Positions 25,238 to 64,000 of a stretch of 64,000 nt of DNA are shown here, in pieces. Source of the DNA: an uncultured Gammaproteobacteria bacterium (GTDB lineage: Bacteria; Pseudomonadota; Gammaproteobacteria; Eutrophobiales; Eutrophobiaceae); NCBI GenBank assembly GCA_938084745.1, contig CALKEZ010000006.1, positions 195,007-259,006 on the forward strand, given 5' to 3'. The notes beneath the pieces are model-generated. The model saw only the letters and a list, made by a program, of their open reading frames with translations, searched no databases and was not told where the DNA came from. Both the position numbers and the translations under genes were made by a program. The stretch's first letter is position 1. The number at the start of each line of letters is the position of its first letter.

Positions 25238-27214
25238 TTAAAAAGCCAGCTGAAACCCGACCATAAGTGATCTTCCCATGATAGGTGCGCGATCTTTTAT
25301 AAATGACGTATGTAAACGTCCGTCTTCATTTAGCAAGTTAGTTGCCTTAGCAAAAACATTCAAACTTTGTTCACCCGCCAAGATATCATAATTTGCATTT
25401 AGCCCCAGTACCGAATAACCACCTGTATCTGTTTCAAGTGCAGCATTATCTTTTTGAGCAAGGATATTTGTAAAATCGATCCCGACATTAAATTCTTTAA
25501 AAGTATAATCAAGACTTGTGCCGAACCTTGCCGGTGATATTCGCGGTAAATTATCACCGTTTTCTCGCTCAGCCCTTACATAATCGCTAAACAAGTTCAT
25601 ATCTAATTGCCCATTGTTTCCTGAATACAGGTTGATGCCTATCTCAGCTTCAAAACCGTAAAAGATGACATTGTCCTGCTGAAATTGAACCAGCAAGAAA
25701 TCTCCAGCTGCGATTCCTGAGTCATCAACTTTATCTACAACACTATCATTATTTCTATCCAATCCTTTTAAGAAAATGAAATCTTCTACATAGTTTACGA
25801 ACAGATTCAAATTCAATTGCCCTGATCGATATTGATGCCGAAATGACAAGTCCATGCTATTTGCGGTTTCAACATCCAGTCCCACCTGTCCGAGTTCAAA
25901 TGTTGCTGTTGCAACATGAGGGCCACTGGCAAATAGTTCTTCGGCTGCCGGCGCACGTTGGCTACGGCCAATAGTTAAACCTAATGATGTATCTTCCAGA
26001 AAATCCCAATGGATACCTGAAGACACACTATACATGGTGTTAACAACCTTTGAGGCATTGCCGGGTTTATCTTCCTGGTGTTCAAAACGCGCACCAATCT
26101 CCAGCTGTAGTGAATCCGAAATATCTACGTTTTCCAGAATAAATACAGCTGCTGTTTTTGTCTTGGTTTTTGGAAGAAAAGCTTCATCACCAACAGCACT
26201 GATATTCCGATAACCTAACTGTGTACCAATAACACCACTAAACATTCCCATTGGTTCATGTTGAATTTCGATGCGGCTATCCATCTGGTCATTACTAAAT
26301 ACCGTTCCTGGTAGTCCTGCAGTTTCAAATTCAGTATGAGCGTAATTGTTATGACCGACTTGTAGAGTGACGGCCTTTATACCCGCAAAGGGATTATTGA
26401 TTTGTCCGGACAGATCAATGCGATCTTGCTGAGCATCAATAAATGGAAGTTCTGCAGGATCTGCCGGGTTTAAAGGCACACCATGTGTCGAGTCGAAGCG
26501 TCCATAGGCAACGCCCAGAAACCCCCAACTATCAACATACGACGTACCAATATTAAAATTTTGTGTGTCATAAAAACTATTGTCAATTTGACCTTTCTTG
26601 GTAGCATAGTTTTTCGCGTCACGCTTCGTAGCATCAAGGTGAAAAGCTATTTTTTTATATCCTCCTTCAGTCTGAATTGAGAATAACTTTTCAAGTGAAT
26701 TAACGTTAAAACTGGAATTAATCCTGTTCTCGAATTCCGGAACAAATTCGGGAATGCGGTTAGTGACAACATTAACCAGTCCTCCTGATGCTTGACTACC
26801 ATAGAGTAAAGTTGAAGGCCCCCTGAATATTTCTATTTGCTCTGCTTGAATGGGCTCTACTGTAACGGCATGATCGGCACTGATAGTAGATACATCGAGA
26901 GACCCGATGCCATTTTCCAGCATGAGCACTCTTGAGCCACCAAGCCCTCGAATTATTGGTCTACTCGCAAGTGGGCTAAAACGATTTGTCGTTACACCCG
27001 GAATGTCCGATAAAGTTTCCCCGATAGTTTGAGCTTGTCTTTTACGAAGTGCTTCATCACTCAGGATAGTCACCGGTTGTGCAATATGTTCAAGGCTCTG
27101 TAAGCCAATCGGCCTGGCTGTAACAGTAAAGTCATCAAGCGTTGTTGTTTCTTCAGAATAAATATTTTGTGTAAGACTACCCAGTAACATTATACCTGCG
27201 TAATGCAATTTCAT
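25238..27214 (-). CDS. TonB-dependent outer-membrane receptor
   Basis: 658-aa ORF with a signal peptide, a plug domain (DDFTVTA, IEIFRGPSTLLYGSQASGGLVNVVT), a beta-barrel repeat character and a terminal aromatic residue (GFQLAF). Confidence 0.9.
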   Translation of the reverse strand: MKLHYAGIMLLGSLTQNIYSEETTTLDDFTVTARPIGLQSLEHIAQPVTILSDEALRKRQAQTIGETLSDIPGVTTNRFSPLASRPIIRGLGGSRVLMLENGIGSLDVSTISADHAVTVEPIQAEQIEIFRGPSTLLYGSQASGGLVNVVTNRIPEFVPEFENRINSSFNVNSLEKLFSIQTEGGYKKIAFHLDATKRDAKNYATKKGQIDNSFYDTQNFNIGTSYVDSWGFLGVAYGRFDSTHGVPLNPADPAELPFIDAQQDRIDLSGQINNPFAGIKAVTLQVGHNNYAHTEFETAGLPGTVFSNDQMDSRIEIQHEPMGMFSGVIGTQLGYRNISAVGDEAFLPKTKTKTAAVFILENVDISDSLQLEIGARFEHQEDKPGNASKVVNTMYSVSSGIHWDFLEDTSLGLTIGRSQRAPAAEELFASGPHVATATFELGQVGLDVETANSMDLSFRHQYRSGQLNLNLFVNYVEDFIFLKGLDRNNDSVVDKVDDSGIAAGDFLLVQFQQDNVIFYGFEAEIGINLYSGNNGQLDMNLFSDYVRAERENGDNLPRISPARFGTSLDYTFKEFNVGIDFTNILAQKDNAALETDTGGYSVLGLNANYDILAGEQSLNVFAKATNLLNEDGRLHTSFIKDRAPIMGRSLMVGFQLAF

Positions 27215-34341: not shown

Positions 34342-36801
34342 TTAACTGTCTTTGTCTCCTAATTGCTTGGATATATCAGCCAGTAAATCATTGTTTGCAG
34401 CAGCCGCTTTTTGTTTCGCCTGCATTGCTTTTTCCCTGATACGTTTCATATGATCAGCAGTCATCTGAATTTGAGTAACTGATGCTGCTTCTTCTTGTTG
34501 TTTGTCTTCGAAATCAGCCAGATCATTACTTATTCTAGCCAGCCATTCCGCTTCTTGTTGTTTCTTTTTAATCAAATCTGCTTCAACCTCGTGTTGTGCA
34601 GATTCTGTTAATTTTTCCCTATGAATTGCATCTTCAATCTCTCGTTCCGCTTCATAGACTTTCTCTTCTACCGCTTTGATCTCGACTTCTATTTTGTCAC
34701 GTTCTATTTTTGAACTAGTAGATTCCATTTGCTTTTCTTTCAAGGCAGAAGCTTCTTCTAATGCTTCTCGTTTGATCTGTTCTGCTTCCAGCTTGGCTTG
34801 CTGGATTTGTTTCATTGTTTCCTGTATTTTTTTCGCTTCCTCTTCCAGTTTCAAACGCTCTGCTTTTAGTTTTGCTTCTTCTTCAGCACGCGTTTTGTCA
34901 TGCGATGTTTTATATTCCTGAATTATCTTTTCTGCTTCTTCCTTGGCAGCAGCACGCGCGGCTTCGGCAGCAGCCTTTTCTTTTTGCAGGTTTTCAAATT
35001 CCTTGTTATTACGATCATATTGTTCGGCCAGTTTTTTACGTTCCTGCTCAATCTTGACTTTAACTTCAGCTTGTAACTTTCTTTCCCGCGCCTCGTCTTC
35101 TATTTTTTTCTTTTCAGCTTGCTCTTCAAGCAGCTTCCTTGATGCCTCGACCTCAGCAAGTATTTTTTTGGATTCAGCAACTTCCTGCTTGATACGTTCA
35201 GCTTCTTCTAATTGTTTCCTGGCCACTTCTGCTTGCTGTTCCAGTTTCTCGCGCTCTTTACGTATCGCTTCCTCAGCCTCTGCCTTGGCTTTTTGAAGTT
35301 TTTCCATCTCCATGGCATTGTTGTTATAAATCTCTTCAAGTTTCTTTTGTTCAGCTTCCATCTGCGCATCAGCTTCTTGCTTGAGCTTTTTAAGTTTTAA
35401 CTCCTCTTCCGCAGCTTTCTTTTTGGATTCTGCTTCAGCTGCTTTTTTCTGTGCTTCTAATGCTTTTCTTTCTTCCAGTAATTGCTGTTGAGCTGCTTCA
35501 TAGGCTTTTTTCTTTTCCGCATCGGACTCATCTGTTGATGCTTTGGCTTTTTCCATCCTGATTTGTGTTGTTTCAAGTTCAGCATTAAGCATCTCGACTT
35601 TAACGTCGGCATCGTCATCTTCCACCTGACTGACAGGTTCAGCTTCAGGTCTGGTTTCAACTTTGATTTTCGTCTCGGCCGGTTTTGGTGCCTCTGGTGT
35701 TTTAGCTGCGCTGGTGGTTTCAACAAGAGCTTCAGAATTATTTACCAGGCCACCTTCAAGATAAGAAACGGTGTAACCACGTTCAGCTAACAAAAAAGCG
35801 CCGGTGGAACTGCGACTCCCGGTATCGCAATAAAGGATATAATTGCCCGCCGGATCCAGTTTATCTGTATGCAGGCGTAGAGAGTTTAGCGGGATATTTA
35901 TACTTCCCTTAATTGATGATTCCTGAAATTCATTTGGAAATCGTACATCCAGCCATATTGCGCCTTCATTCACCAATGCCGATGCATCGGCGAAGCTTAA
36001 TGATTGTAATGTCGGTTTTTTGATCAGTTCTATGAAGGTCTCTTTTGCAAGTTGCATCAAAACACCATCAGTTATCATGGTCACTGTCGCATTTCGTTTT
36101 GCACTCGAGATCAAGGCCTCTTCGCCGAAGCTGTCACCCGTTGTTAACTCAGCCAGTTTGACATCATTACTTGTCGGCGTCGGTCTTCTTGAAACCGCAC
36201 ATCGCCCCTCAGAAATGATGTAATAATTCTCGCCAATTTCACCTTGTGAGATGACAACATCTCCGGCCTTGAATTCTATCGGCTCCAACAAGGCAAACAG
36301 CTGATGAATATTTGCCATCGGCATCCGGGAAAAGAGTTCCGATTGCAACATCTGCGTCATCCAGTCGGCATCATCATCATCAACACCATCGACCTCATCG
36401 ACTTCCATATCAGCACCCGAGCCAGTCGGTTCTACCGTTGCTTCCTGAGCCAGTAACATTAACTGGTCGAGATTATTACGTTCGATCAGCAGGATTTTGA
36501 GTGGTGTTTTAGCCTTTGCGGAATATTGTCGTGGTTGCAACTGTGCCAGGGCATATTTAGCCCGGTCACTACCGCTTTTAATAACGCTGTCGAGCTGATC
36601 ATTCGCATATAATTCAATTTCACCATCGATGAGATAATAGGAATAATTATCTCTATCACCTTGATTGAAGATGTAGCGGGACTTTTTGACCTCCAGGATT
36701 TGGGCGCTTTTTAGCAACCTTGCCTGAAGATTCGCAGGTAATTCATTGATCGGTATGAGTTCTCTAACCTGTTGTTGCAGTTGATCGTTGGCTTCTGACA
36801 T
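34342..36801 (-). CDS. Two cyclic-nucleotide-binding domains + rhodanese domain + ~410-aa E/K/A-rich helical tail
   Basis: 819-aa ORF. The cNMP-like barrels are at about aa 20-115 and aa 160-262 (GDSFGEEALISSAKRNATV). The rhodanese domain is at aa ~272-352 with active-site loop YCDTGSRSS (Cys325, nt 35827-35829). From about aa 400 (nt 34345-35604) the sequence is charged coiled-coil or single-helix-like. Confidence 0.8.
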   Translation of the reverse strand: MSEANDQLQQQVRELIPINELPANLQARLLKSAQILEVKKSRYIFNQGDRDNYSYYLIDGEIELYANDQLDSVIKSGSDRAKYALAQLQPRQYSAKAKTPLKILLIERNNLDQLMLLAQEATVEPTGSGADMEVDEVDGVDDDDADWMTQMLQSELFSRMPMANIHQLFALLEPIEFKAGDVVISQGEIGENYYIISEGRCAVSRRPTPTSNDVKLAELTTGDSFGEEALISSAKRNATVTMITDGVLMQLAKETFIELIKKPTLQSLSFADASALVNEGAIWLDVRFPNEFQESSIKGSINIPLNSLRLHTDKLDPAGNYILYCDTGSRSSTGAFLLAERGYTVSYLEGGLVNNSEALVETTSAAKTPEAPKPAETKIKVETRPEAEPVSQVEDDDADVKVEMLNAELETTQIRMEKAKASTDESDAEKKKAYEAAQQQLLEERKALEAQKKAAEAESKKKAAEEELKLKKLKQEADAQMEAEQKKLEEIYNNNAMEMEKLQKAKAEAEEAIRKEREKLEQQAEVARKQLEEAERIKQEVAESKKILAEVEASRKLLEEQAEKKKIEDEARERKLQAEVKVKIEQERKKLAEQYDRNNKEFENLQKEKAAAEAARAAAKEEAEKIIQEYKTSHDKTRAEEEAKLKAERLKLEEEAKKIQETMKQIQQAKLEAEQIKREALEEASALKEKQMESTSSKIERDKIEVEIKAVEEKVYEAEREIEDAIHREKLTESAQHEVEADLIKKKQQEAEWLARISNDLADFEDKQQEEAASVTQIQMTADHMKRIREKAMQAKQKAAAANNDLLADISKQLGDKDS

Positions 36802-41120: not shown

Positions 41121-43259
41121 ATGATTAATCATACGCTTTCATCAAATCAATTATTCACGAGTCCACGATTCTTTTTTGCCACAACCGGACTGAGTATTTT
41201 TTTCAACCTGTTACTGATTAGCTGGTTATTACTGAACAGTATCGACGCCACCGCTGATGCTATTACCGAAACAGACGTAGTCGAAAATATCGGTGAACTG
41301 GGGCAAGGCACGCTTTTGTTTAAATATCTTAATCAATATAAAAAAGCGCCACAGTTAACTATTGATGTGCGCATGAAGATCACCGGCATGATCAATCGTG
41401 TCACAGTGATACAAACATTCAGCAACACAACGGATGCCTGGCAGGAAGGTATTTACGTTTTTCCGCTGCCCGAAAATGCAGCCGTTGATCAACTTCGATT
41501 GCGCGTTGGCGAACGTATTGTTGAAGGACAAATAAAAGAGAAACAGGAGGCTAAAAAAACCTACCAGCAAGCAATAAAACAGGGGAAAAAGGCAGCGCTA
41601 ACCGAACAGGAAAGACCCAACGTCTTCACGACCTCAGTCGCTAATATTGCACCACACGAGACAGTAACGGTAGAAATCGAATACCAGCAAATTGTTCACT
41701 ATGATAATGCCGCATTCTCAATACGTTTCCCGATGGTGGTTGGACCACGCTATATACCGGGCCAACAACGTATTAATGGCTTCGCCGGCACCGGCTGGGC
41801 CTTGAATACTGACCAAGTTCCTGACGCAACGCGAATAACACCACCCGTAATAGCGCCGGGAAGTGATCGTAAAAACAAAGTCTCGATTCGAATAGATCTC
41901 GATGCTGGACTGCAACTGGATAAAATTTACAGCCCTTACCATGCTATTCAAATTGATGAGCAAGCCCATCGTTATCAGATCCAATTAAAGCAGGAATTGA
42001 CCCTGGCTAATAAAGATTTCGAATTGATCTGGCTACCGCATACCAGTGATGCACCCAAAGCCGCATTATTCACTGAGAAAGTAAACGGTGAAACCTATGC
42101 CTTGATTATGATGATACCGCCCACTGTTAAAAAAACCGAATCATTAAATCGAGAGATTATTTATGTTATCGATACTTCGGGCTCTATGGGAGGTCAATCA
42201 ATCATACAGGCACGCGCCGCACTTGAACTCGCCTTGACCCGGCTTAAGCCAGGAGATAGGTTTAATATTATTCAATTCAATTCATGGACAGCAAAACTTT
42301 TTAGCCGGTCTGAATTAGTCAGCCCGGCGTCACTGGAACAGGCTTTACATTATGTTCGTTCGTTAGAAGCAAGTGGTGGCACCGAGATGGCAACAGCCTT
42401 ACATGCGGCCTTAGCTAATCAGGGTGAGCATGAAAGTTTACGTCAGATTATCTTTATAACTGATGGCAGTATTGGTAATGAACAAGTCTTATTTGACATC
42501 ATTCAAATGGAACTTGGGCAAAGTCGTCTCTTCACTGTTGGCATTGGATCAGCGCCCAATTCTCATTTTATGCAACGCGCTGCCACTTTTGGTCGTGGCA
42601 CACATTCGTATATCGGCAAACTTGATGAGGTTCAAACACGCATGCAAAGCTTGTTTGAAAAAATCGAGAACCCGATTTTGAAAGATATTCATGTTGATTG
42701 GGGTCAGGTTAACAAGCAAACAAATAACAGCGCAGTAAATATCGATCACTGGCCACAAAAAATACCGGATCTCTATCAAGGCGAACCGCTATTAATTACA
42801 GCAAAAGTCGATGCCCTGCCTGATACTATTTTGATCAGTGGTCACGTTGCTAAACAAGACTGGAACGCAACATTAAACCTGAGCGGCGGACAAAATCGAC
42901 CCGGCATTGCGACGCTATGGGCACGCAACAAGATCGCGGCATTGATGCAACAAAAACGCGATGCTGAATTTGAGTCCACTAAACAAGTCATTATTGCTAC
43001 GGCACTGAAACATCATCTGGTCAGTCAATACACCAGTCTGGTTGCTGTCGATGTGACACCGAGTCGACCGCTGGACAAAAACATCAATACAAACGCTATC
43101 CCCACGCATCTGCCTGCAGGTTGGGATCATACTAAAGTCTTTGGTCAACCCTTCCCGGCAACGGCGACTGATGCGCGTATCAACTTCATCATAGGTCTAG
43201 TGCTTATGTTTATCTCTGTACTTTTATATCTCTGTCGTCGCCGTGAAACCTGTATTTAA
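41121..43259 (+). CDS. Marine proteobacterial sortase target protein (VIT + vWA domains, C-terminal sorting signal)
   Basis: 712-aa ORF with a VIT-like N-domain, a vWA domain with MIDAS (IYVIDTSGSMGG) and a tripartite C-terminal signal (see next feature). Confidence 0.85.
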   Translation: MINHTLSSNQLFTSPRFFFATTGLSIFFNLLLISWLLLNSIDATADAITETDVVENIGELGQGTLLFKYLNQYKKAPQLTIDVRMKITGMINRVTVIQTFSNTTDAWQEGIYVFPLPENAAVDQLRLRVGERIVEGQIKEKQEAKKTYQQAIKQGKKAALTEQERPNVFTTSVANIAPHETVTVEIEYQQIVHYDNAAFSIRFPMVVGPRYIPGQQRINGFAGTGWALNTDQVPDATRITPPVIAPGSDRKNKVSIRIDLDAGLQLDKIYSPYHAIQIDEQAHRYQIQLKQELTLANKDFELIWLPHTSDAPKAALFTEKVNGETYALIMMIPPTVKKTESLNREIIYVIDTSGSMGGQSIIQARAALELALTRLKPGDRFNIIQFNSWTAKLFSRSELVSPASLEQALHYVRSLEASGGTEMATALHAALANQGEHESLRQIIFITDGSIGNEQVLFDIIQMELGQSRLFTVGIGSAPNSHFMQRAATFGRGTHSYIGKLDEVQTRMQSLFEKIENPILKDIHVDWGQVNKQTNNSAVNIDHWPQKIPDLYQGEPLLITAKVDALPDTILISGHVAKQDWNATLNLSGGQNRPGIATLWARNKIAALMQQKRDAEFESTKQVIIATALKHHLVSQYTSLVAVDVTPSRPLDKNINTNAIPTHLPAGWDHTKVFGQPFPATATDARINFIIGLVLMFISVLLYLCRRRETCI
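43152..43259 (+). other. Cell-wall-sorting-type signal: FPATAT motif + hydrophobic helix + basic tail
   Basis: The last 35 aa are FPATAT-DARINFIIGLVLMFISVLLYL-CRRRETCI. The motif is encoded at nt 43152-43169. It resembles the LPxTA/ST-type signal that I recall for this sortase class, with Phe in place of Leu. Confidence 0.6.
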
Positions 43260-52130: not shown

Positions 52131-52781
52131 TTAAATTATCAGCGCGTACATTGCGTGTTGAAACCCGTCAATTATTGGCCCGATTATTTTAAACAAGACG
52201 CCACTGGCCAATAAGACAACGAGGATGATTAAACCATAAGGTTCAAGTTTTGCGTAACGAGAAGCGATGGGTTCGGGCAATAGTGAAAAAACTACACGGC
52301 TGCCATCTAATGGCGGCAAAGGAAAAAGATTAAGAATCATTAATAAACTATTAATGACAATTCCCGCCCATGCCATCAAGGTTAAAATATGTGCAGTCCA
52401 GTTACCTTGATCTGCTGCTGTTATAAACAGTTTTGCAATGATCAACCAGAACATGATCATGAGTAAATTTGCCGCAGGACCGGCCAGGGCAACTAAGGCA
52501 ATATCACGCTTGGTATTTTTCAATCGATTCCAGTTTACGGGTACCGGTTTAGCCCAACCAAATATAAAGCCACTGGCAAAAAACATGATTAATGGAACTG
52601 CAATGGTGCCTACAGGATCGATATGTTTTAACGGATTAACCGAAAGCCGCCCCATATCTTTTGCAGTGGTATCGCCGAGCAAACTGGCAACCCAACCATG
52701 ACTTACTTCGTGCAGGGTGATAGCAAACAGTACCGGGATACTCCAGATCAATATTTGATAAGCTGTGGACAGTTCAGACAT
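52131..52781 (-). CDS. Site-2-protease (M50) family membrane metalloprotease, short form
   Basis: 216-aa polytopic ORF with an HExxH in a TM helix (LHEVSHGW) and a downstream LFPLPPLDG motif. Confidence 0.8.
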   Translation of the reverse strand: MSELSTAYQILIWSIPVLFAITLHEVSHGWVASLLGDTTAKDMGRLSVNPLKHIDPVGTIAVPLIMFFASGFIFGWAKPVPVNWNRLKNTKRDIALVALAGPAANLLMIMFWLIIAKLFITAADQGNWTAHILTLMAWAGIVINSLLMILNLFPLPPLDGSRVVFSLLPEPIASRYAKLEPYGLIILVVLLASGVLFKIIGPIIDGFQHAMYALII

Positions 52782-52818: not shown

Positions 52819-53667
52819 CTAATCCTGTGAGCCAAGTAGCCAGGCATCACTGTTGGGTGACTTTTCGATCTCTGTTTTACCCAACTGCTTAAAATCAAAT
52901 GCTACCGTATCCAGTAGGTGTGATGGCACAATATTCTGTATGCTGGTAAAAATCGTTTCTGTTCTACCCGGCTTTTGCTTATTCCATTCGGTCAGCATCT
53001 GTTTTATAGCCTGACGCTGCATATTGTCTTGAGAACCACACAAAGTGCATGGAATAATCGGAAAAGCTTTTTCTTCAGCGTACATCTTTATATCAGACTC
53101 AGCACAATAGGCTAAAGGTCGAATGACAACGTTTTCACCATCGTCGCTGAGTAACTTGGCAGGCATTGATTTTAGTTTGCCGCCATAGAACATATTTAAA
53201 AACAGCGTCTCAATAATATCTTCGCGGTGATGCCCTAACGCGATTTTGGTATAACCCTGCTCCTTGGCGAAACGGTAAATAATGCCTCTTCTCAATCTGG
53301 AACACAGACCACAATAGGTTTTATCTTCAGGGATAACCCGTTTTACGACGCTGTAGGTATCTTCTTCGATGATATGATATTCAATACCAAGTTCATTCAG
53401 GTAATCAGGCAATACATGCTCGGGAAACCCGGGTTGTTTTTGGTCCAGATTTACAGCAATCAATTCAAAATCCACCGGTGCATTTCGTTGCAGGCTTTGC
53501 AAAATATCCAGCATCGTATAAGAATCAGCGCCGCCCGATAAACAGACCATCACCCTGTCACCGGCTTCAATCATATTGAAATCGGCAATCGCACGACCGA
53601 CATTGCGCCGCAAGCGTTTTTGCAGCTTGTCGTAATTATATTTTTCTTTTCGCTGTGCGATTGCCAT
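52819..53667 (-). CDS. ttcA: tRNA 2-thiocytidine(32) synthetase TtcA
   Basis: It has a PP-loop (VCLSGGADS), a Cys cluster ([10 protein letters not shown]...CTLCGSQ) and a TtcA-like N-terminus ([21 protein letters not shown]). The start is set at the ATG at 53667, 2 nt after the upstream stop, although the tracked ORF extends to 53697. Confidence 0.9.
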
Positions 53668-53669
53668 TA

Positions 53670-54059
53670 TTAGCCTTGCCTGCCTGCACCTGTACATGGA
53701 TAGCTTTTTGTTAGTGCTTCCAGGGCCAATGTTTGTGCTGCTTCTTTAGAGCGGGAAGATTGACTGCGTAAGTAGGCAATAACATTATCCGTAACCTCTT
53801 CCTTTGGATTCAGTTGCGGATTTATACAGAAAAATGGCTGGCTTTGTTCGGCTTGATGTAACTGCATTACTGTTAGAACCAATCCAACAACGTACTGTTG
53901 GCAACCAGCATTTGGCGCACCTGGCGCTGAACCTGTCTCACAACTCGTCAGTAGTTCTCCCGCTGTTAAAAGCTCGGGTTCTTCCTCAGCGAGGACAGTA
54001 TTTGAATTCAATAATAGTGTGCTCAATAGGATTAAAATTGTTTTCTTTATAAAACTCAT
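53670..54059 (-). CDS. Periplasmic four-Cys protein resembling the Rap1a/Tai immunity family
   Basis: 129-aa ORF with a signal peptide followed by the pattern GELLTSC....GC..YVVG......FCINP....EEV...VIAYL......A...[11 protein letters not shown], which matches my recollection of Rap1a/Tai proteins. Confidence 0.45.
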
Positions 54060-57236: not shown

Positions 57237-57587
57237 TTAATTAATATGATCTGTATTCAGGTAATCATTTTGACTATCTGCAATAGATTCCTCATGTTGC
57301 TTTACAACACGAACAACAACAATGGAATCACGATAGAAATCTGAATGTATCGGTACCCGTACCTTTATAGCAGCACGTTCACCACCTCTGCCGTCAGCAT
57401 AAATAATAACGTCGTCAACATTTAAAAATCGCGAATTATATTCCATTCGACCATCTTCATAGACCAATAATATATTGTCTAATGCCGATGATTCGACAAC
57501 ATTATTAACGGGTTGAGTAGAGGTACAAGCCGTATTTAACAAACAGCAAGTGACAATTACTAAGGCATGTGAAATATATTTATTCAT
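57237..57587 (-). CDS. Hypothetical lipoprotein
   Basis: 116-aa ORF with a lipobox (CLLNTAC). No family recognised. The region is AT-rich. Confidence 0.55.
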   Translation of the reverse strand: MNKYISHALVIVTCCLLNTACTSTQPVNNVVESSALDNILLVYEDGRMEYNSRFLNVDDVIIYADGRGGERAAIKVRVPIHSDFYRDSIVVVRVVKQHEESIADSQNDYLNTDHIN

Positions 57588-57819
57588 AATAGTTTACATA
57601 TAGTTATGTGATTAACTTAAACTATATAATAAATATAAAAAAATGGTGTGGACTAAATCACACTATGGTTTATCTACATGAGAACCAGATCTCGTTTTTC
57701 ACTTATTTAAGTGTGACTCAGGTAATATTGTCGTCAGAAATTCTGCCTGAGTATGCTGCCAGAATCATCAATAAGATAAAAACCTTAATTAAAGCTTATG
57801 AGTTTAATCAGTTATTAAA

Positions 57820-59946
57820 TCAAAAACCGGATTCCCTTATAAAAACAGCCGCGACTAATTTATAAGCTCGCTTAAGATAACTTTCGGGATCGCTCTGGAC
57901 ATGGACTACACCACGTATTTCCTGTTCAGCTTTTGCCTCTTCGACCAAACTCATCTCAAATCGTACCCGATACTCAGACTTGTCCGGTACGAGCTTTTGC
58001 AATTCATTCATTGTGACCGGAACTTTACCGCCATAAACAGATGCGATCTCATCCATATCGAAGGTCTGTAAATTAGCGCTTTCGATTTCTCTGACGTAGC
58101 CCCAAACGGAATCAAGCTCAGGGTTATCCGGGATAAATTTTGCGCTAGCCAACAACATGATTCGGGATAATTGTGCCTCTGAAACTACGCCGTCAAAAGT
58201 TGCTCTGACCGGATCAACAACTGTTGCCAGGGGTAATGTTTTATTAATCCAGCGCTTCGCATGCAGTGATTCGTGCACATCATAAACCACACCACTAATA
58301 GGCGCGCGGATTACAAGTTTGTTTTTTTGTTCGAGCAGACCGTTCAACCTTGATCGACTTTCCTGTAACTGCTTAACGATTATCTGGACATTAGACAGTT
58401 CTTCCAGGCTCGCAGCTATCCTTCTGGCCTGCAATTGTAAAATCTCTATTTCCTTTAGCGTAATATCAATTTTGTGTTCCAGCTTTGGTGATCGTAAAAC
58501 CAGTAAAATATCATTTGCTTCAACATATTCATTTTCGCGAATAAAATTGCTTTCAATGTAACCTGGCGCCGAGGCAAATAGAGTAGCCTTTGAACCGCTT
58601 TTAAATACAGCAGGTACTTTAATTGATGTGCCCCATGGGAAAATAACGACTCCCAACAAAACAATGAATATTAACGAAGTAATATAGAAACGTTTTGTTT
58701 TAATAATTTTAGTCCTCATTTCCCACCAACTCCTTATTAACCCGATCACAGGTAAAATTATAAACCAGAGAATTTCTATCAAGAATAAAATGATGCCCAG
58801 TAATTTAAAAAAGAAATAATAGACAAGTATGGCAATACCAATAAACAGGAAGAATCGATACACCCACACGCACCATGCATAAAGGTATAGCTTCTTAAGC
58901 ATTGCGGATGGTAGTGCTTCTGGTGGCCTTAAGTTTAGCCCAAACAGGATTTCAGTTAACTTCCATTTTCCCACATCAAACGAACGCTTCTGTAGATTCT
59001 GGATGCCGAGTAGATCTGAAAAGATATAATAACCATCAAAGCGCATCAGAATATTTGAGTTAATCGCTAGCGATAGTATCCAGCTTGTTGTCGCCATGAT
59101 AAAAGCAGCGCTTTTTAATATGCCATCAGGCAGAAAACCCCAGCAAAATGTGGCAATACAGGCAATATACAATTCCATTATCATACCCGCCGCACCGACA
59201 TGTGCACGCTCCAGAGCAGAGCGTATACGCCAGGTATCGGATGTGTCCGTGTATAAAATAGGAAACATCACCAGTAGAGCCACACCCATGGTCGGAACCT
59301 TGCAGCCGTAGCGAACGGTTGTATAGGCATGTGCAAGTTCATGCAAAATTTTTATAACAACAAGCGAAACGAAATAGAATGCGAGACCTTGCAGATTAAA
59401 AAAATAGAGGAATGTAGAGGTAAAACTATCCCATTGCCGGCCAACGATATAAAGACCGATTAAACCGACGAGCAAAACCAGTGCTGTTGTAGTTGCAGAG
59501 AATAGCGGTTCTACATAGACGAGTGTTTTTCTAAGAAATGATGTTGGCTTCACTAAAGGGATCTTTATAAAAAGATAGTTATGTATCAACCACATCAAAA
59601 AGCCAGGTTTACTGGCTAAATACTGCTCGAGATAATCATTGCTTGAGCCGCTGGTTGGCTCGAGTGTCAAACTATTACCATAGAGAAATGATAATAAGCT
59701 TTGTACATCTTCTTTGCGGACATCAAGTGTTGTTTCTTTTTTTACCCGATCCAGAAGTATACTTGCTTTACCAACAGACCATCTCGAAAGCAATTGAAAT
59801 GCAGTCCAGCCAATTGAAAAATATTTATTTCTGACTGGATCAAATATTATCCAGCTAGGCGAGCCATCCAGTGCCACTGCACCTTCGAGTAGATGTAGAT
59901 CATGACGTAATACCGGCAGAACAATATCTTGTTCAGTCTCATTCAT
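57820..59946 (-). CDS. Fusion protein: PqqD/RRE-like N-domain + M50 (S2P-like) membrane metalloprotease + C-terminal HlyD-type membrane-fusion domain
   Basis: 708-aa ORF. HELAH lies in a TM helix (nt 59329-59343), with a downstream NILMRFDGYY motif and multiple TM helices up to about aa 435. The rest is a barrel-sandwich/coiled-coil MFP-like part (FASAPGYIE...ANDILLVLRSPKLEHKI...APISGVVYDV). Confidence 0.75.
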   Translation of the reverse strand: MNETEQDIVLPVLRHDLHLLEGAVALDGSPSWIIFDPVRNKYFSIGWTAFQLLSRWSVGKASILLDRVKKETTLDVRKEDVQSLLSFLYGNSLTLEPTSGSSNDYLEQYLASKPGFLMWLIHNYLFIKIPLVKPTSFLRKTLVYVEPLFSATTTALVLLVGLIGLYIVGRQWDSFTSTFLYFFNLQGLAFYFVSLVVIKILHELAHAYTTVRYGCKVPTMGVALLVMFPILYTDTSDTWRIRSALERAHVGAAGMIMELYIACIATFCWGFLPDGILKSAAFIMATTSWILSLAINSNILMRFDGYYIFSDLLGIQNLQKRSFDVGKWKLTEILFGLNLRPPEALPSAMLKKLYLYAWCVWVYRFFLFIGIAILVYYFFFKLLGIILFLIEILWFIILPVIGLIRSWWEMRTKIIKTKRFYITSLIFIVLLGVVIFPWGTSIKVPAVFKSGSKATLFASAPGYIESNFIRENEYVEANDILLVLRSPKLEHKIDITLKEIEILQLQARRIAASLEELSNVQIIVKQLQESRSRLNGLLEQKNKLVIRAPISGVVYDVHESLHAKRWINKTLPLATVVDPVRATFDGVVSEAQLSRIMLLASAKFIPDNPELDSVWGYVREIESANLQTFDMDEIASVYGGKVPVTMNELQKLVPDKSEYRVRFEMSLVEEAKAEQEIRGVVHVQSDPESYLKRAYKLVAAVFIRESGF

Positions 59947-61298
59947 ATTCCGAATAATTGTCGAACGTATGAGATGGGACGTCTAAACATATAAAAGAAT
60001 AAGGAAACACGTTCACCGAATATCTTGGCCGTACCTTGTAAACCTATTCTCAATTTATTGTTTTTTATTTGATCAAATTCTGCATAGACCCTGTAAGAAA
60101 GAGTATCCTGATCATATTTTTCTGCTTTATAACTCGACTTGGTCACCGTGGCCTTTATCGGTGACAAAGGATAGGCATCCAGAAAGACTTCCACTTCTGC
60201 GCCTTCTTTTAGTACGATAGCATCATCAATTGAGAGATTTATTTTTAGTTGTATTTGTTCTGTATCGGCAATTTCCATGACTCTCTCACCAACCTGAACC
60301 GGTTTACCAATCCAGTCGGATATATCTGTGTAAATTAACAAACCACTTTTTTCTGCTGTAACATTAATTTTTTCAAGCAATTCAGCTGTGAATTCGGCTT
60401 TGCTTCGATACAGTTCTGTTTGTGCTCTTAGATAAGAAATTTGAGCCTTACTCTTGGCATCCTTAAATGCGCCTTGTGCTGCCTTTCGGTATTCTGCTTC
60501 CGCAACTTCCGTGGTCTTTTTAGCCACGTTATATTCATTGCGTAAATTGGTATCTTCAAGCACAAACAGCACATCACCCTCAACCACCCGCGTATTGGGC
60601 GGAAAGTCTATCTCAGCAATAACGCCATCCATAGGTGAACTCACAATAACAGGCTGTTTTGCTGTAATTTCTGCGGGGGCCAAAGCTGAAAGCTTTATCG
60701 GCTTTATAAAAACCCCGAGTAAAAAAACAACAATAATCCATACCGCAACGGTAACTTTCTTCGGACGATGGTAGAGCCTTCTTTTACTTGTGATAGCGAC
60801 CTGAGCATGCGCATAGGTCTCACCGAGTCGCTTGAACAAGGCAAGCTCATTATCACGCCAGGGCGTCTCTCTAGTGACCCAAAGGCCGCCAATAAAAGTC
60901 CCATCGGGCAATTTTAAAGGCGTCCATAAACCGAAAGGTAATGAAAACTCTTTCCAGCCTTCCTTCAGATTCTCTGGACATTGCGTCTCATCGATCAATC
61001 GCTGGGTAGCAATAGTATCGCTGTCAAACAGACTTTTAAGTGTCTTTTCCAACCATGATGCAAAAGGGGCGTGTTTTTCGATAACGGCCACACTTGATGC
61101 ACAAACAAGTTTGCAGTCTCGTTGTATAGGATGTGATGATAAAAACAAATACGCTTGTCTATAAGGTAACAAACGGCGCGTCTCGTTTACGATCATAAAA
61201 TAAAGCGCATCTGCCGACGGTGCCGCACGCGCCATAGACTCTAACTGGAGTAATTTTGATACTGCCGCAAGTTCTGTTCCTTGAGTTTCTGTTGCCAT
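59943..61298 (-). CDS. Membrane-fusion (HlyD-family) protein with cytoplasmic GAF-like N-domain
   Basis: 451-aa ORF that overlaps the next gene by 4 nt. About 170 aa at the N-terminus are GAF-like (LYFMIVNETRRLLPYRQAYLFL...FGLWTPLKLPDGTFIGGLWVTRETPW). One TM helix follows (VAVWIIVVFLLGVFI), then an HlyD-like part (SSPMDGVIAEIDFPPNTRVVEGDVLFVLED plus coiled coil). Confidence 0.7.
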   Translation of the reverse strand: MATETQGTELAAVSKLLQLESMARAAPSADALYFMIVNETRRLLPYRQAYLFLSSHPIQRDCKLVCASSVAVIEKHAPFASWLEKTLKSLFDSDTIATQRLIDETQCPENLKEGWKEFSLPFGLWTPLKLPDGTFIGGLWVTRETPWRDNELALFKRLGETYAHAQVAITSKRRLYHRPKKVTVAVWIIVVFLLGVFIKPIKLSALAPAEITAKQPVIVSSPMDGVIAEIDFPPNTRVVEGDVLFVLEDTNLRNEYNVAKKTTEVAEAEYRKAAQGAFKDAKSKAQISYLRAQTELYRSKAEFTAELLEKINVTAEKSGLLIYTDISDWIGKPVQVGERVMEIADTEQIQLKINLSIDDAIVLKEGAEVEVFLDAYPLSPIKATVTKSSYKAEKYDQDTLSYRVYAEFDQIKNNKLRIGLQGTAKIFGERVSLFFYMFRRPISYVRQLFGI

Positions 61299-61300
61299 AA

Positions 61301-62077
61301 TTAATTATTGTTTTTATTGAATTGCGCGGTACCGCTCATCCCGGAAAGAACCTCTTCAATATCATCATCAAATTTGCCGGTCAGTTTTATCGTCTGGCTA
61401 ACAGGATCGACGACGGCGCCTATCTTTGCGACTTTGGCATCGAGTATCTTTCCTGTTTCATCAATGATAAATGAAAACGGTTCGCCGACCTTCAACCAGT
61501 TTAACCAGTTGGAAGGAACGATTAATTCTATTTCCAAATCACGGTCATTAAGTATCGACAAAATCTCCCTGTCTACGGGGACCGTCTCATGCTCATTAAT
61601 GGCGACTTCAATCACGCGACCGCTGTAAGGTGCCTTGATTTTACATTGATTCACACGTATCGCTTTCATCGTACGATCGGCTCTTGCTACCTGCATTTCC
61701 GATTTCGATATAGAAACATCTATATCGCTAATAGCGTTTAACGCCAGTAACTCTTTATTGTTCTCATAGATATGTTTTCTGGATTGATATGCCGCATCTG
61801 CCGAGGCCAAATCAGCACGATAAAAGGAGCACTCAAAACCGACCAACACATCACCTTTTTTAAAACGATCACCAGACTTGAAGGGTAACTCATCTATTTT
61901 TGCAGCAATTTCACTTGATATAACCGCTCTGTCGACCGGTTTTATTAGCCCCCTAACATTGTCTGCAACAATTCCCGTAGAGAAAAAATCATCTTCTTCA
62001 GCATATCCAGCCTGAATTCCGGTAAAGATAAATAATAAAAGAGTTAGCGTCTGAATATTCATAACATTAACGTTCAT
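61301..62077 (-). CDS. Short periplasmic adaptor (membrane-fusion/biotin-lipoyl-like) protein
   Basis: 258-aa ORF with a signal peptide and MFP-type lipoyl and beta-barrel segments (ISSEIAAKIDELPFKSGDRFKKGDVLVGFE, APYSGRVIEVAINEHETV). Confidence 0.7.
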   Translation of the reverse strand: MNVNVMNIQTLTLLLFIFTGIQAGYAEEDDFFSTGIVADNVRGLIKPVDRAVISSEIAAKIDELPFKSGDRFKKGDVLVGFECSFYRADLASADAAYQSRKHIYENNKELLALNAISDIDVSISKSEMQVARADRTMKAIRVNQCKIKAPYSGRVIEVAINEHETVPVDREILSILNDRDLEIELIVPSNWLNWLKVGEPFSFIIDETGKILDAKVAKIGAVVDPVSQTIKLTGKFDDDIEEVLSGMSGTAQFNKNNN

Positions 62078-62092
62078 TCAAAATCTCCAAAA

Positions 62093-63595
62093 CTATTCAA
62101 TCTTCATGGAAAAAAGTTGTTCGTGTAAGGACAACCCTTCGAAATATTTCATTATAGAATCTGTTAATGAACTCACACTATCCGTATCGGCATCAATTGG
62201 AAAAGGATCAATTCCTAACGATGCAAAAATACCCGCATAAGCATTTTCGACATCCGAGTAAGCTATGTCATATTTTATCTCGGCAACCATCATATTCATT
62301 TCTTCTCTTATCAGTGATTGTTCAGTCACGGTGTTTTTAGCCACACCTGAGCGTAATTGGTCGAGTATTTTTTGCTGAGTTAAATAGTAGTCCGCTGCTG
62401 TTTTATATTCGCGTTGTGCGTGTTCATATTGAGCCAGGCTTACATGTACCTGAGTCATAATCGCCATGGTTAATGCCAGACGTCTGGCTTCCAGCACATT
62501 TTCTCTTGCGCCCAACTCCCTTTTTGTTGCCGGTAATTTGAAGATATTGAGAAGATTCCAGCTGACCTGAGTACCATAACTCAACCAATTATTATTAAAC
62601 AGGAATGAGTTGCTGCTATAACTTTTACCAAAATTAATATCCAGACCTGGCAATAAACTTAAAATCGCTGCCTTGGCTTCTTTCTTGTTAATCCTTTCTT
62701 CATAAGAGATAGTCCTTATCTCTGGCCTGTTCTCAAGTGCAATTTGCTCCATCATTTCTGGCGAGATATCAACCTTATCAACAATGTCACCACGATCAGG
62801 AATCACTAGCTGATAACTCTCACCGGGGCGTAGATTCATAAGCGCAGCAAGCTGAATTTTTGCTAACGATAAATCTCGTTGCAGCGCCTCAAGCTCGCGT
62901 TTAATCCCAATTAATTCGCGTTGATAGGTTAATGCCGTTAAAGGACGCTCCAGGCGTTTCTTTTCGACTTGTTTGGATTCTTCTATCGCTTGGGAAACGC
63001 GCACTAATAACGCTTCAAGTTTTACAATTAACCGATCATTACTGACAGCACGCCAATAGGCAGTTCTGACATCTTGCACCATACGATTAACGACTTTTCT
63101 TTTTTCTTCTTCCGCAATAAGTACTTTGTCAGCAGCTTGCTTGGCTCTTATGTATGACAAACCAAAATCAAGCACATTCCAGGTCAATGACAAATCAGCA
63201 TTGAAAATGTCACGATTAGATGAGGTCGAAGTCGATAATGACTGTAGGCCTGTTAGTAAAGATTGGCTGGAAGCACCGCTAAAATTATCACGGCCATTAT
63301 AACCGGACTTGGCAACGAGTTGTGGCAATAACTCATAACGAGAAAGATCCAGTTCTGTTTGAGACAGAATTTTTTCTGCAAACTCAAGATGAAAATCGAG
63401 ATTATATTTCAATGCGCGCGCAATGGATTCATACAGCGTAATGGGTTCGACCACAGGATCCTGATTCCATGTAATCAAAACACTATCATTACTCGCCTGG
63501 GCTTTTAATTCGTCATGCGTCAACGGCACCGGAATAAAAGCACACCCCGATACGAGTAAGCATAAAACGACAATATAACAACGGTATTGCATCAT
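62093..63595 (-). CDS. TolC-family outer-membrane factor lipoprotein
   Basis: 500-aa ORF with a lipobox (LLVSGCAF) and the two-fold repeated helical/beta OEP architecture typical of NodT/TolC proteins. Confidence 0.85.
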   Translation of the reverse strand: MMQYRCYIVVLCLLVSGCAFIPVPLTHDELKAQASNDSVLITWNQDPVVEPITLYESIARALKYNLDFHLEFAEKILSQTELDLSRYELLPQLVAKSGYNGRDNFSGASSQSLLTGLQSLSTSTSSNRDIFNADLSLTWNVLDFGLSYIRAKQAADKVLIAEEEKRKVVNRMVQDVRTAYWRAVSNDRLIVKLEALLVRVSQAIEESKQVEKKRLERPLTALTYQRELIGIKRELEALQRDLSLAKIQLAALMNLRPGESYQLVIPDRGDIVDKVDISPEMMEQIALENRPEIRTISYEERINKKEAKAAILSLLPGLDINFGKSYSSNSFLFNNNWLSYGTQVSWNLLNIFKLPATKRELGARENVLEARRLALTMAIMTQVHVSLAQYEHAQREYKTAADYYLTQQKILDQLRSGVAKNTVTEQSLIREEMNMMVAEIKYDIAYSDVENAYAGIFASLGIDPFPIDADTDSVSSLTDSIMKYFEGLSLHEQLFSMKIE

Positions 63596-63732
63596 TCTCA
63601 GCGAACCGTTTTTTTACTTTTATTCATAAACAATGCAGACCGCTTAAATATTTGTGTTGAATGTAACGTCAGAAATTCTTTTGCGCCATATAGGTACATT
63701 AAAGAATATAGAAACGCATTATATTCAATTAT

Positions 63733-64000
63733 CTAGTTAATTAATGCTTTTCTTATCTCGTCTGTTAAATTATCAAACTTAATGGCTTCTTTATCTATTT
63801 GATGCTCGAATAAACTTGCGCCTGCAATAAACTCATCACCGATCTGTTCCAATGCTGCAATTTCGCCACTATTCACATTCACATCAACATACCTGACGAT
63901 CACCGTACCATCACTTAAGGTGACTTCAATACGCAATTCAACTGCGTCTGTTCCTATCGGTGGTTCACCACTGACCAAGCCACCGTTATCATCAATTCGT
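63733..64000 (-). CDS. 3' end of a gene continuing beyond the window (unassigned; possibly a large secreted protein)
   Basis: The frame is open to nt 64000 (..RIDDNGGLVSGEPPIGTDAVELRIEVTLSDGTVIVRYVDVNVNSGE...). The tracked GTG start is probably an artifact of the window edge. It ends 137 nt upstream of the TolC-like gene on the same strand. Confidence 0.5.
   Translation of the reverse strand, partial: RIDDNGGLVSGEPPIGTDAVELRIEVTLSDGTVIVRYVDVNVNSGEIAALEQIGDEFIAGASLFEHQIDKEAIKFDNLTDEIRKALIN

Follow-up and report, generated by a model that had tools for sequence, protein, structure and literature searches.

What is the role of a TolC-type operon that encodes three periplasmic adaptors and an intramembrane protease and no pump? 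To our knowledge, an energised transporter in the inner membrane is part of all TolC-dependent machines characterised so far, and an operon that appears to depart from this rule lies at the end of a 64,000-nucleotide stretch of DNA (the window) from an uncultured gammaproteobacterium of the family Eutrophobiaceae (assembly GCA_938084745.1, contig CALKEZ010000006.1, positions 195,007 to 259,006 of the forward strand). Behind the truncated end of a fifth gene, this operon encodes a TolC-like lipoprotein, a short adaptor, and two proteins in which an adaptor is fused to another domain, namely a GAF-like domain in one case and a metalloprotease domain of the M50 or site-2 protease (S2P) family in the other. 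Comparison with related loci points to a widespread, uncharacterised five-gene module and, with it, to a route for the export or display of huge proteins that has not been described before. A probability of roughly 0.5 is given here to the reading that the five genes form one conserved module, in which a dedicated apparatus spanning the envelope processes a giant repetitive, adhesin-like surface protein and exports or displays it.

The operon calls rest on a list of open reading frames (ORFs) and on Pfam and NCBIfam (release 20) scans of the encoded proteins. Five co-directional frames were found on the minus strand, with the four complete genes 3' of the truncated one (Table 1). Read from upstream to downstream they are separated by 137 nt, 15 nt and 2 nt and by a 4-nt overlap, which is exactly the packing described in an earlier note made from the sequence alone. 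For comparison, 80 species loci were fetched from a one-genome-per-species collection and analyzed by tblastn and ORF clustering; together with four contigs of the window's own sequence they make up a set of 84 loci (loci are numbered with L and gene clusters with c). The arrangement is not a product of chance, since dozens of species from several phyla have their genes in this order. The gene neighborhood of the quartet of complete genes, whose conservation had been proposed as a check, proved to be well conserved: the two fusions are paired in virtually all loci that are long enough to contain both, with the GAF-like fusion directly preceding the M50 fusion wherever upstream sequence exists in the fetched loci; the short adaptor precedes the GAF-like fusion in nearly all loci; and the TolC-like gene (cluster c2) was found in 59 of the 84.

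The earlier note had treated the truncated upstream gene as incidental, and on this point it was wrong. With the C-terminal ends encoded by the corresponding genes of L005 and L006, its closest relatives, the truncated ORF shares 69-73% identity, and the upstream protein of L006 has at least 1,804 amino acids with Big_13, Big_6, and Calx-beta domains. In another close relative, which shares identical downstream synteny on a 2.66-Mb contig (L097), the ORFs upstream add up to 3,650 amino acids or more and match Pfam LapA and Big_9. The truncated gene belongs to a cluster of giant genes (c1), a member of which directly adjoins the apparatus in 57 of the 63 informative species loci, that is, those with enough flanking sequence, and lies one gene away in two more. 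Its placement within the 57 loci varies, being upstream and co-directional as in the window (21 loci), upstream and divergent (5), downstream (27), or on both sides (4). Judged by these counterparts, the truncated gene is the conserved partner of the apparatus and encodes its probable cargo, a giant adhesin-like protein.

Complete members of the module illustrate the size of this cargo. In the RefSeq annotation of Azospirillum brasilense Sp7, a 4,195-amino acid DUF4347 protein is followed by genes annotated as TolC family, RND adaptor, HlyD, and HlyD; the giant protein on an Escherichia coli plasmid has 4,473 amino acids; and the cargo gene of Variovorax paradoxus VAI-C (L098, CP063167.1 19413-68132) spans 48.7 kb and encodes 16,239 amino acids, annotated as a "tandem-95 repeat protein". 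In the latter strain, type II secretion gsp genes are located directly downstream of the M50 fusion. Overall, the cargo proteins range from 1,200 to 16,000 residues, and their DUF4347 domain is followed by cadherin-like, Ig/Big, VCBS, and tandem-95 repeats; no RTX or HemolysinCabind domains were found in the three full-length cargos scanned. The proteobacterial cargos, including that of the window, end in a loose [FL]xxQL tail, and those of Nitrospira and Nitrosomonas (L012, L019, L020, L024, L026, L029, L031, L053, and L060) in a hydrophobic helix, G.V.WLLRSG.LLASLL...PAW..DPL, with a charged tail. This second ending looks like a membrane anchor or a sorting signal at the C-terminus, and it could itself be an S2P-type substrate. 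A search with the 88-amino acid C-terminal fragment of the window's gene matched only one fragment of 98 amino acids; an exact look-up with the TolC-like protein gave no match, and the matches of the M50 fusion and the short adaptor were on contigs of 6.3 kb or less. In L096 and L097 the giant gene extends past the 10-kb flank covered. Metagenome assemblies repeatedly break (contig ends in L005, L006, and L095) or have a gap (100 N in L096) inside the giant repetitive gene, so that giant genes are under-represented beside the apparatus; this may explain why the association was overlooked.

The apparatus itself is widely distributed. A word-indexed search with the M50-adaptor fusion gave more than 4,400 matches, including an identical protein, and an exhaustive profile search retrieved 4,909 clusters (50% identity) with E <=1e-30, the best 150 matches of which are all full length (approximately 650-750 amino acids) except for one 509-amino acid fragment. 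In the one-genome-per-species collection at least 566 M50-fusion loci were confirmed, which span the Gammaproteobacteria, Nitrospira (including N. defluvii), Nitrosomonas, Rhizobiaceae, Hyphomicrobiaceae, and Sphingomonadales and also occur in Pelagibacter, Marinobacter, Halomonas, Pseudomonas, and Desulfobulbaceae. The names given to the apparatus genes by RefSeq and JGI are generic (efflux adaptors or "multidrug resistance efflux pump"), and NCBIfam release 20 holds no specific model for any of the four apparatus proteins. The five-gene cassette was also found on plasmids of E. coli, Citrobacter, Hafnia, and Kosakonia. On two E. coli plasmids (L091, NZ_CP030920 109718-129511; L094, NZ_CP081785) the five genes alone are bracketed by the insertion sequences (IS) IS1B and ISKpn26, in different arrangements and contexts, and because of this the five genes are regarded, on gene content, as a self-contained mobile unit. 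At >=99% identity the M50 fusion gene is present in 24 of 5,426 complete E. coli genomes, where it is mostly plasmid-borne. On pKL53-L the cassette adjoins a sil/pco metal-resistance island. In Azospirillum lipoferum 4B the M50 fusion match and the match to the cargo leader (see below) plus DUF4347 are on different replicons (NC_016588 and NC_016585, respectively), which could represent a split system or an additional copy. Loci of the Rhizobiaceae group (L035-L043, L083, and L084) have, behind the M50 fusion, additional conserved genes in the same orientation; clusters c6 (approximately 362 amino acids) and c12 (approximately 387 amino acids), neither with a Pfam or NCBIfam match, occur in most of these loci and clusters c28-c30 and c34 in a subset.

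A second link between cargo and apparatus is found at the N-terminus of the giant proteins. All 43 giants with a visible N-terminus, as well as the E. coli protein, start with a basic (net-positive) stretch followed by a motif of the LEPR-XLL type, with the consensus L-E-[P/S/Q/A]-R-x-x-[F/L]-D-[G/A]-A-x-x-A-T. The E and R residues are kept in 43/43 sequences, L, D, and A in 42/43, and T in 41/43. This leader matches the NCBIfam model NF012209 (LEPR-XLL), for which three of the four relatives tested scored above the cut-off, and the motif is also present in the Azospirillum giant protein. It is followed by an acidic linker and then by the DUF4347 domain (E 1e-46 to 1e-105). A Sec-type signal was considered for the cargo and rejected, since by inspection the conserved segment shows no hydrophobic core and contains three charged residues (E, R, and D).

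DUF4347 was likewise rejected as a marker specific to the system. A plasmid-encoded protein of Phaeobacter inhibens starts directly at DUF4347, without a leader and without the quartet nearby, and a DUF4347 protein encoded on a plasmid of Mesorhizobium ciceri also lacks both the leader and the quartet. Because of these leaderless proteins, the leader is the better marker of the system. The M. ciceri gene has as neighbors one annotated as "peptidase domain-containing ABC transporter" and one for an HlyD adaptor of the type I kind. Taken together, this suggests a natural swap, in which leaderless DUF4347 cargo is paired, in the Mesorhizobium example, with a classical ATP-binding cassette (ABC) type I system and leader-bearing cargo with the M50 quartet, a pattern that fits the M50 protease standing in for the C39/ABC module.

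The proteins of the quartet were assigned by profile searches and, for the two fusions, by structure prediction. The TolC-like protein matches Pfam OEP in two stretches (1.8e-36), which places it in the TolC/OEP family, and its N-terminus is a signal sequence with the lipobox LLVSGC; its scores with the NCBIfam models specific for TolC and NodT were far under the cut-offs. The short adaptor scored above the cut-off of NCBIfam RND_mfp (110 bits versus 94.9 bits), matches HlyD_3 at 1.2e-16, and has a hydrophobic N-terminal segment (residues 3-21 by hydropathy) that represents a signal sequence. HlyD_3 is common to all three adaptor-type proteins and identifies them as periplasmic adaptors. In the GAF-like fusion, HlyD_3 (1.4e-12) and HlyD_D23 (4.2e-10) match the C-terminal half, a periplasmic adaptor preceded by an N-terminal domain (approximately residues 1-170) and one transmembrane helix (183-201 by hydropathy). 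The M50 fusion consists of a domain resembling the recognition elements (RREs) of ribosomally synthesized and post-translationally modified peptide (RiPP) pathways (approximately residues 18-90), the polytopic M50 domain (approximately 115-438), and a periplasmic adaptor (approximately 440-708), in which HlyD_3 matches residues 545-618 (2.1e-07).

AlphaFold2 models of both fusions, built with 62-64 homologs, were confident, with a pLDDT of 83.5 for the GAF-like and 82.9 for the M50 fusion. When these models were compared with the PDB by Foldseek, the top matches were MacA, MexA, and ZneB for the GAF-like fusion and MacA, EmrA, AcrA, and MexA for the M50 fusion, with E down to 3e-15 for the former and 1e-12 for the latter. 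Based on these matches, the C-terminal parts of both models are real adaptors, with predicted alpha-hairpins of approximately 55 residues. Only adaptor structures appeared among the top 50 matches of the full-length models, in which any matches of the N-terminal domains were swamped. In its model, the N-terminal domain of the GAF-like fusion shows the alpha/beta arrangement of the GAF type. Of eight such domains from relatives, six gave a match to GAF or GAF_2 (E 0.006-0.15), four of these matches spanning nearly the whole profile; all were sub-threshold, the best score being 17.5 bits against a cut-off of 22.4 bits. The N-terminal domain of the M50 fusion is modeled as three strands (18-21, 32-36, and 41-45) followed by three helices (47-54, 61-71, and 78-90), which is the RRE/PqqD topology. 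Pfam PqqD matched the N-terminal domains of 3 of 32 relatives below threshold (E 0.018-0.22), with two matches spanning the whole profile, and a PDB profile search with this domain gave nothing significant, its only match being a non-significant one to the Rio2 winged helix.

The protease domain narrowly missed the threshold of Pfam Peptidase_M50 (PF02163; 26.5 versus 27.2 bits), for which many relatives carry a precomputed match. Hydropathy shows six or more hydrophobic segments in its residues 140-438, and a PDB profile search matched the S2P of M. jannaschii at the HExxH region. The residues H202, E203, and H206 as well as R302, F303, D304, G305, and Y306 are invariant in 64 sequences, and the HExxH motif together with a correctly spaced xDG motif, the two S2P signatures, is intact in all 79 species-level relatives. 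A PDZ domain was not reported by Pfam in this protein. The closest named relative of the M50 domain is the daptide_HExxH family (NF041824; 1.1e-34, 120 bits, residues 117-400), whose equivalog cut-off of 300 bits is far above this score. By sequence, the domain thus represents a subfamily related to the daptide leader peptidase and not a member of that family. KEGG-derived labels on relatives read "putative peptide zinc metalloprotease", after YydH.

With these results, profile searches having covered all four complete proteins and structure prediction both fusions, the initial assignments of outer-membrane factor, adaptors, and M50 protease were upheld. The TolC-family lipoprotein and the short adaptor were borne out by the OEP match, the lipobox, and the RND_mfp score. 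Of the two proposed fusions, the HlyD parts and the M50 motifs stood, and the GAF-like and RRE-like parts received sub-threshold matches with compatible model topologies. The earlier hint at YydH and peptide processing is sustained in that the nearest named M50 relative is a RiPP leader peptidase; a small peptide as cargo is unlikely, no conserved small ORF having been found.

No ABC, resistance-nodulation-division (RND), or major facilitator superfamily (MFS) gene was detected in the operon by the ORF list, Pfam, or NCBIfam, so that no energized transporter is co-encoded with the quartet. The annotations of the cassettes in Azospirillum, in Variovorax, and on the E. coli plasmids list none either. 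A scan of all ORFs for Walker-A and ABC signature motifs found ABC ATPases in only 6 of the 84 loci, all of them kilobases away and none adjacent or conserved. The earlier note's claim of an operon without an energizing pump is thereby confirmed for the operon of the window and the annotated cassettes, and the position immediately upstream, where a transporter gene would have contradicted it, is occupied by the giant adhesin-like gene. Cluster c3, whose members lie beside giant genes, was considered as an ABC exporter and rejected, since it consists of PAS-histidine kinase, response regulator, or PAS-GGDEF-EAL genes. These regulator genes, which share an N-terminal membrane domain, adjoin the giant gene in some lineages (L013, L019, L024, L026, L029, L031, L053, and L060), and the remnant of a truncated EAL gene flanks the E. 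coli cassette (L094 702-872), which hints at cyclic di-GMP (c-di-GMP) or two-component control. Among ten window ORFs selected for a Pfam scan (eight of the largest and two near the operon), the sole exporter-type ABC gene is located 33 kb off on the opposite strand (23470-25194, +). It encodes a 574-amino acid half-transporter (ABC_membrane and ABC_tran) and adjoins a TonB-dependent receptor gene (25238-27214, -); no link between it and the operon was seen.

How such an apparatus might work can be outlined as follows. The leader would be bound in the cytoplasm by the RRE-like domain of the M50 fusion, perhaps with help from the GAF-like domain of the second fusion, and the active intramembrane M50 metalloprotease would clip the leader at the inner membrane. 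The three adaptor paralogs would form a mixed ring docked on the TolC-like lipoprotein, giving a duct to the surface, and the GAF-like domain would act as a gate that responds to a small ligand. The scheme does without an ABC, RND, or MFS motor; candidates for the driving force are the proton-motive force or ratcheting by extracellular calcium-dependent folding of the repeats. Single elements of this scheme have precedents, as two different adaptors share one pump in TriABC, a protease is built into the exporter in C39-ABC systems, leaders are removed by M50 proteases in the case of YydH and the daptide protease, and SpoIVFB is a precedent for an M50 protease cutting a weakly hydrophobic N-terminal leader. 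In its full form, the proposal is a previously unrecognized ABC-independent secretion pathway, in which the LEPR-XLL leader is recognized and cleaved by the adaptor-fused M50 protease and cargo of up to approximately 16,000 residues passes through a three-adaptor ring and a TolC-like channel with no known transport ATPase or antiporter; this stronger version is put forward tentatively, as less likely than not but with a substantial chance. The maturation-and-export idea of the earlier note has thus gained a conserved unit, the lack of a pump, a protease resembling RiPP peptidases, and a giant cargo, and has lost its small-peptide version; both the function and the cleavage remain conjectural.

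The dedicated-apparatus reading starts from the observed gene content, conservation and mobility as a unit, cargo linkage, intact catalytic motifs, and adaptor folds, and several points weigh against it. Its main weakness is that no inner-membrane translocon or channel and no energy source is recognizable for a cargo of this size, and the leaderless DUF4347 protein beside an ATP-driven ABC system suggests that such cargo normally needs a motor. All functional evidence for the reading is guilt by association, and leader cleavage by the M50 protease is inferred. The labels "RRE-like" and "GAF-like", based on sub-threshold profile matches and predicted topologies, are plausible but unproven. The leader and the DUF4347 domain are extrapolated to the window's own giant gene from its relatives, its N-terminus lying beyond nt 64000. 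Furthermore, the two types of cargo C-terminus are unrelated to each other, and the TolC-like gene is not adjacent in some lineages (for example L031, L045, L047, L060, and L071).

The main rival, which we regard as unlikely, is that the adhesin is exported by another route, for example by an unlinked type I ABC system, and that the quartet controls its retention and release: the adhesin would be tethered in or under the TolC-like channel, and the GAF-gated M50 protease would cut its N-terminal anchor, in analogy to the action of LapG and LapD on LapA. This would avoid the problem of the missing motor. The cargo is indeed LapA-like (Pfam LapA repeats in L097 and Big, cadherin, and VCBS repeats elsewhere), a folded DUF4347 domain follows the leader at the position of a retention module, and a cytoplasmic GAF-like domain fused to a periplasmic domain would suit inside-out signaling; the c-di-GMP or two-component genes beside the giant gene in Nitrosomonas and Nitrospira and the truncated EAL gene beside the E. 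coli cassette also speak for this rival. However, no linked ABC system was found in approximately 80 loci, the IS-bounded E. coli cassette moves with the five genes only, RTX or HemolysinCabind repeats went undetected in the three full-length cargos, and a dedicated TolC-like channel with three adaptors would be much machinery for a release switch.

In type I secretion of the LapA kind, LapB is the ABC transporter, LapC the adaptor, and LapE the TolC-like protein, and release is carried out by LapG/LapD. That system and the module both have a giant, repetitive Ig/cadherin-type cargo encoded next to an adaptor and a TolC-like channel of its own, an N-terminal element targeted by a dedicated protease (presumed here), and, in some lineages of the module, nearby regulators of the c-di-GMP type. 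In contrast to the LapA system, the module has no ABC ATPase and three adaptor paralogs instead of one, it uses an adaptor-fused M50 enzyme of the inner membrane in place of a periplasmic BTLCP cysteine protease, and its conserved signal is N-terminal (LEPR-XLL), RTX repeats being undetected. Genes of the LapG (BTLCP), LapD, or LapB type were found neither in the operon nor as conserved neighbors, and genes of the GGDEF-EAL or histidine-kinase type adjoin the module only in some lineages.

For the dedicated apparatus, a parallel in design is offered by peptidase-containing ABC transporters (PCATs), in which a C39 peptidase-ABC protein works with an HlyD-type adaptor (e.g., CvaAB-TolC). These also have a leader-bearing substrate, a protease built into the export machine, and a duct of adaptor and TolC, and a system of this kind adjoins the leaderless DUF4347 protein of M. 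ciceri mentioned above. They differ in that the peptidase is a cytoplasmic cysteine enzyme fused to the ABC protein, whereas the module has a zinc-dependent intramembrane M50 protease fused to an adaptor and no nucleotide-binding domain, and in that their cargo is a small bacteriocin and not a protein of thousands of residues.

It is improbable that the operon is instead an envelope-spanning signaling device, in which the M50 protease carries out regulated intramembrane proteolysis of a membrane-anchored regulator (like RseP or SpoIVFB), the adaptors and the TolC-like protein sense the envelope, and the giant gene is merely under the control of the device, its product not being the substrate. 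Proteases of the S2P family are classically signaling proteases, a GAF-like domain could act as sensor, and regulator genes are adjacent in some lineages, but the module contains no conserved gene for an anti-sigma factor, sigma factor, or transcription factor, the invariant leader sits on the giant protein itself, and the M50 domain groups with leader peptidases and not with the RseP type, Pfam having reported no PDZ domain. With SpoIVFB, which acts on pro-sigma-K, the module would share an M50 protease that takes a short pro-sequence off the N-terminus of a protein other than the classical transmembrane substrates; SpoIVFB is, however, a signaling protease of Gram-positive sporulation that has no adaptor fusion and belongs to no envelope-spanning assembly.

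Maturation and export of a small RiPP-like peptide, with a short precursor cut by the M50 protease and leaving via the duct of adaptors and TolC-like protein, is very improbable. The RiPP M50 leader peptidases (daptide NF041824 and YydH of Bacillus subtilis) are the closest named M50 relatives, share the HExxH and xDG motifs, and have an RRE-like domain in the same protein, and the similarity to the daptide peptidase, the YydH-type labels, and the RRE-like topology of the N-terminal domain speak for such a role. Yet the M50 domain reaches only 120 of the 300 bits required, the four genes are packed too tightly to leave room for a precursor gene, and no conserved small ORF, precursor, or modifying enzyme was found in approximately 80 loci, the giant gene being the only conserved neighbor; moreover, the protease of the module is part of an adaptor fusion and is associated with a giant protein and a TolC-like one.

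An ordinary small-molecule efflux pump with its inner-membrane transporter encoded elsewhere and an incidental giant gene, as the efflux-type annotations of RefSeq and JGI would have it, is already disfavored and scarcely credible, given that adjacency to the giant gene has outlasted rearrangement of the loci in Gamma-, Alpha-, and Betaproteobacteria, in Nitrospirota, and in Desulfobulbaceae, that known pumps co-encode adaptor and transporter while TolC can be remote, the reverse of the situation here, and that the active site of the protease is strictly conserved. The best adaptor-fold matches do come from such pumps (MacA, MexA, AcrA, and EmrA by Foldseek), but TriABC-OpmH and MacAB-TolC have RND or ABC transporters as motors, and their substrates are small molecules or small peptides.

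The literature searched contained no description of a system combining an M50/S2P protease with HlyD and TolC proteins, DUF4347, or the LEPR-XLL leader, in line with the earlier statement that no characterized example is known. The accessible parts of a survey that appeared in Chemical Reviews in 2021 and covers tripartite and type I systems mention no M50/S2P components, and a 2026 preprint on giant symbiosis proteins deals with a different, ABC-type system. What would be new, as far as gene content indicates, is a tripartite TolC/adaptor assembly with a protease in the place of the transporter and an N-terminal leader on the cargo. If this is true, replacement of the transporter by an intramembrane protease would amount to a new way across the Gram-negative envelope or to a new control of the occupant of a TolC channel, and a function would be assigned to three large orphan families: the M50-adaptor fusions (approximately 4,900 clusters at 50% identity), the LEPR-XLL leader, and the DUF4347 giants. 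The latter are among the largest bacterial proteins and likely adhesins in groups of environmental importance (Nitrospira, Nitrosomonas, SAR11, rhizobia, and Azospirillum). The IS-bounded cassette on E. coli and Citrobacter plasmids makes the question directly testable in a tractable host.

Table 1. Features of the operon and its 3' flank in the window (coordinates are window positions).
Feature	Position	Strand	Basis or remark
C-terminal end of giant adhesin-like gene, probable cargo	63733..64000	-	Frame open to window end; 88 codons + stop
Outer-membrane factor (TolC/OEP family) lipoprotein, 500 aa	62093..63595	-	Pfam OEP, lipobox
Short periplasmic adaptor (membrane-fusion protein) with signal peptide, 258 aa	61301..62077	-	RND_mfp, HlyD_3
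GAF-like/transmembrane helix/periplasmic adaptor fusion, 451 aa	59943..61298	-	HlyD_3, HlyD_D23, AlphaFold2
RRE-like/M50/periplasmic adaptor fusion, 708 aa	57820..59946	-	Peptidase_M50, HlyD_3, AlphaFold2
HELAH, zinc-binding and catalytic motif of M50 domain	59329..59343	-	Translation
MRFDGYY, second S2P motif with third zinc ligand D304	59026..59046	-	Translation
Terminator-like hairpin followed by T-run, ~160 nt 3' of last gene	57646..57663	-	Consensus scan only

The hairpin downstream of the M50 fusion gene may mark the end of the operon, and the consensus scan detected no minus-strand terminator-like site in the 137 nt that separate the giant gene from the TolC-like gene; a promoter scan performed no better than on shuffled sequence. 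Just downstream of the operon, a lipoprotein-like ORF of 116 amino acids (57237-57587, -) without a family match is kept only in the closest relatives and is probably outside the module. A 216-amino acid ORF (52131-52781, -) follows a PP-loop ATPase gene (52819-53697, -), and its counterparts in the syntenic relatives L095-L097 are annotated as small stand-alone Peptidase_M50 proteins; this ORF may encode a second, unrelated M50 protease in the neighborhood. The wider context of the window includes an AddAB-like helicase/nuclease pair (11189-17255, -), a protein with two cNMP-binding domains and a rhodanese domain (34342-36801, -), and a VIT+VWA protein (41121-43259, +).

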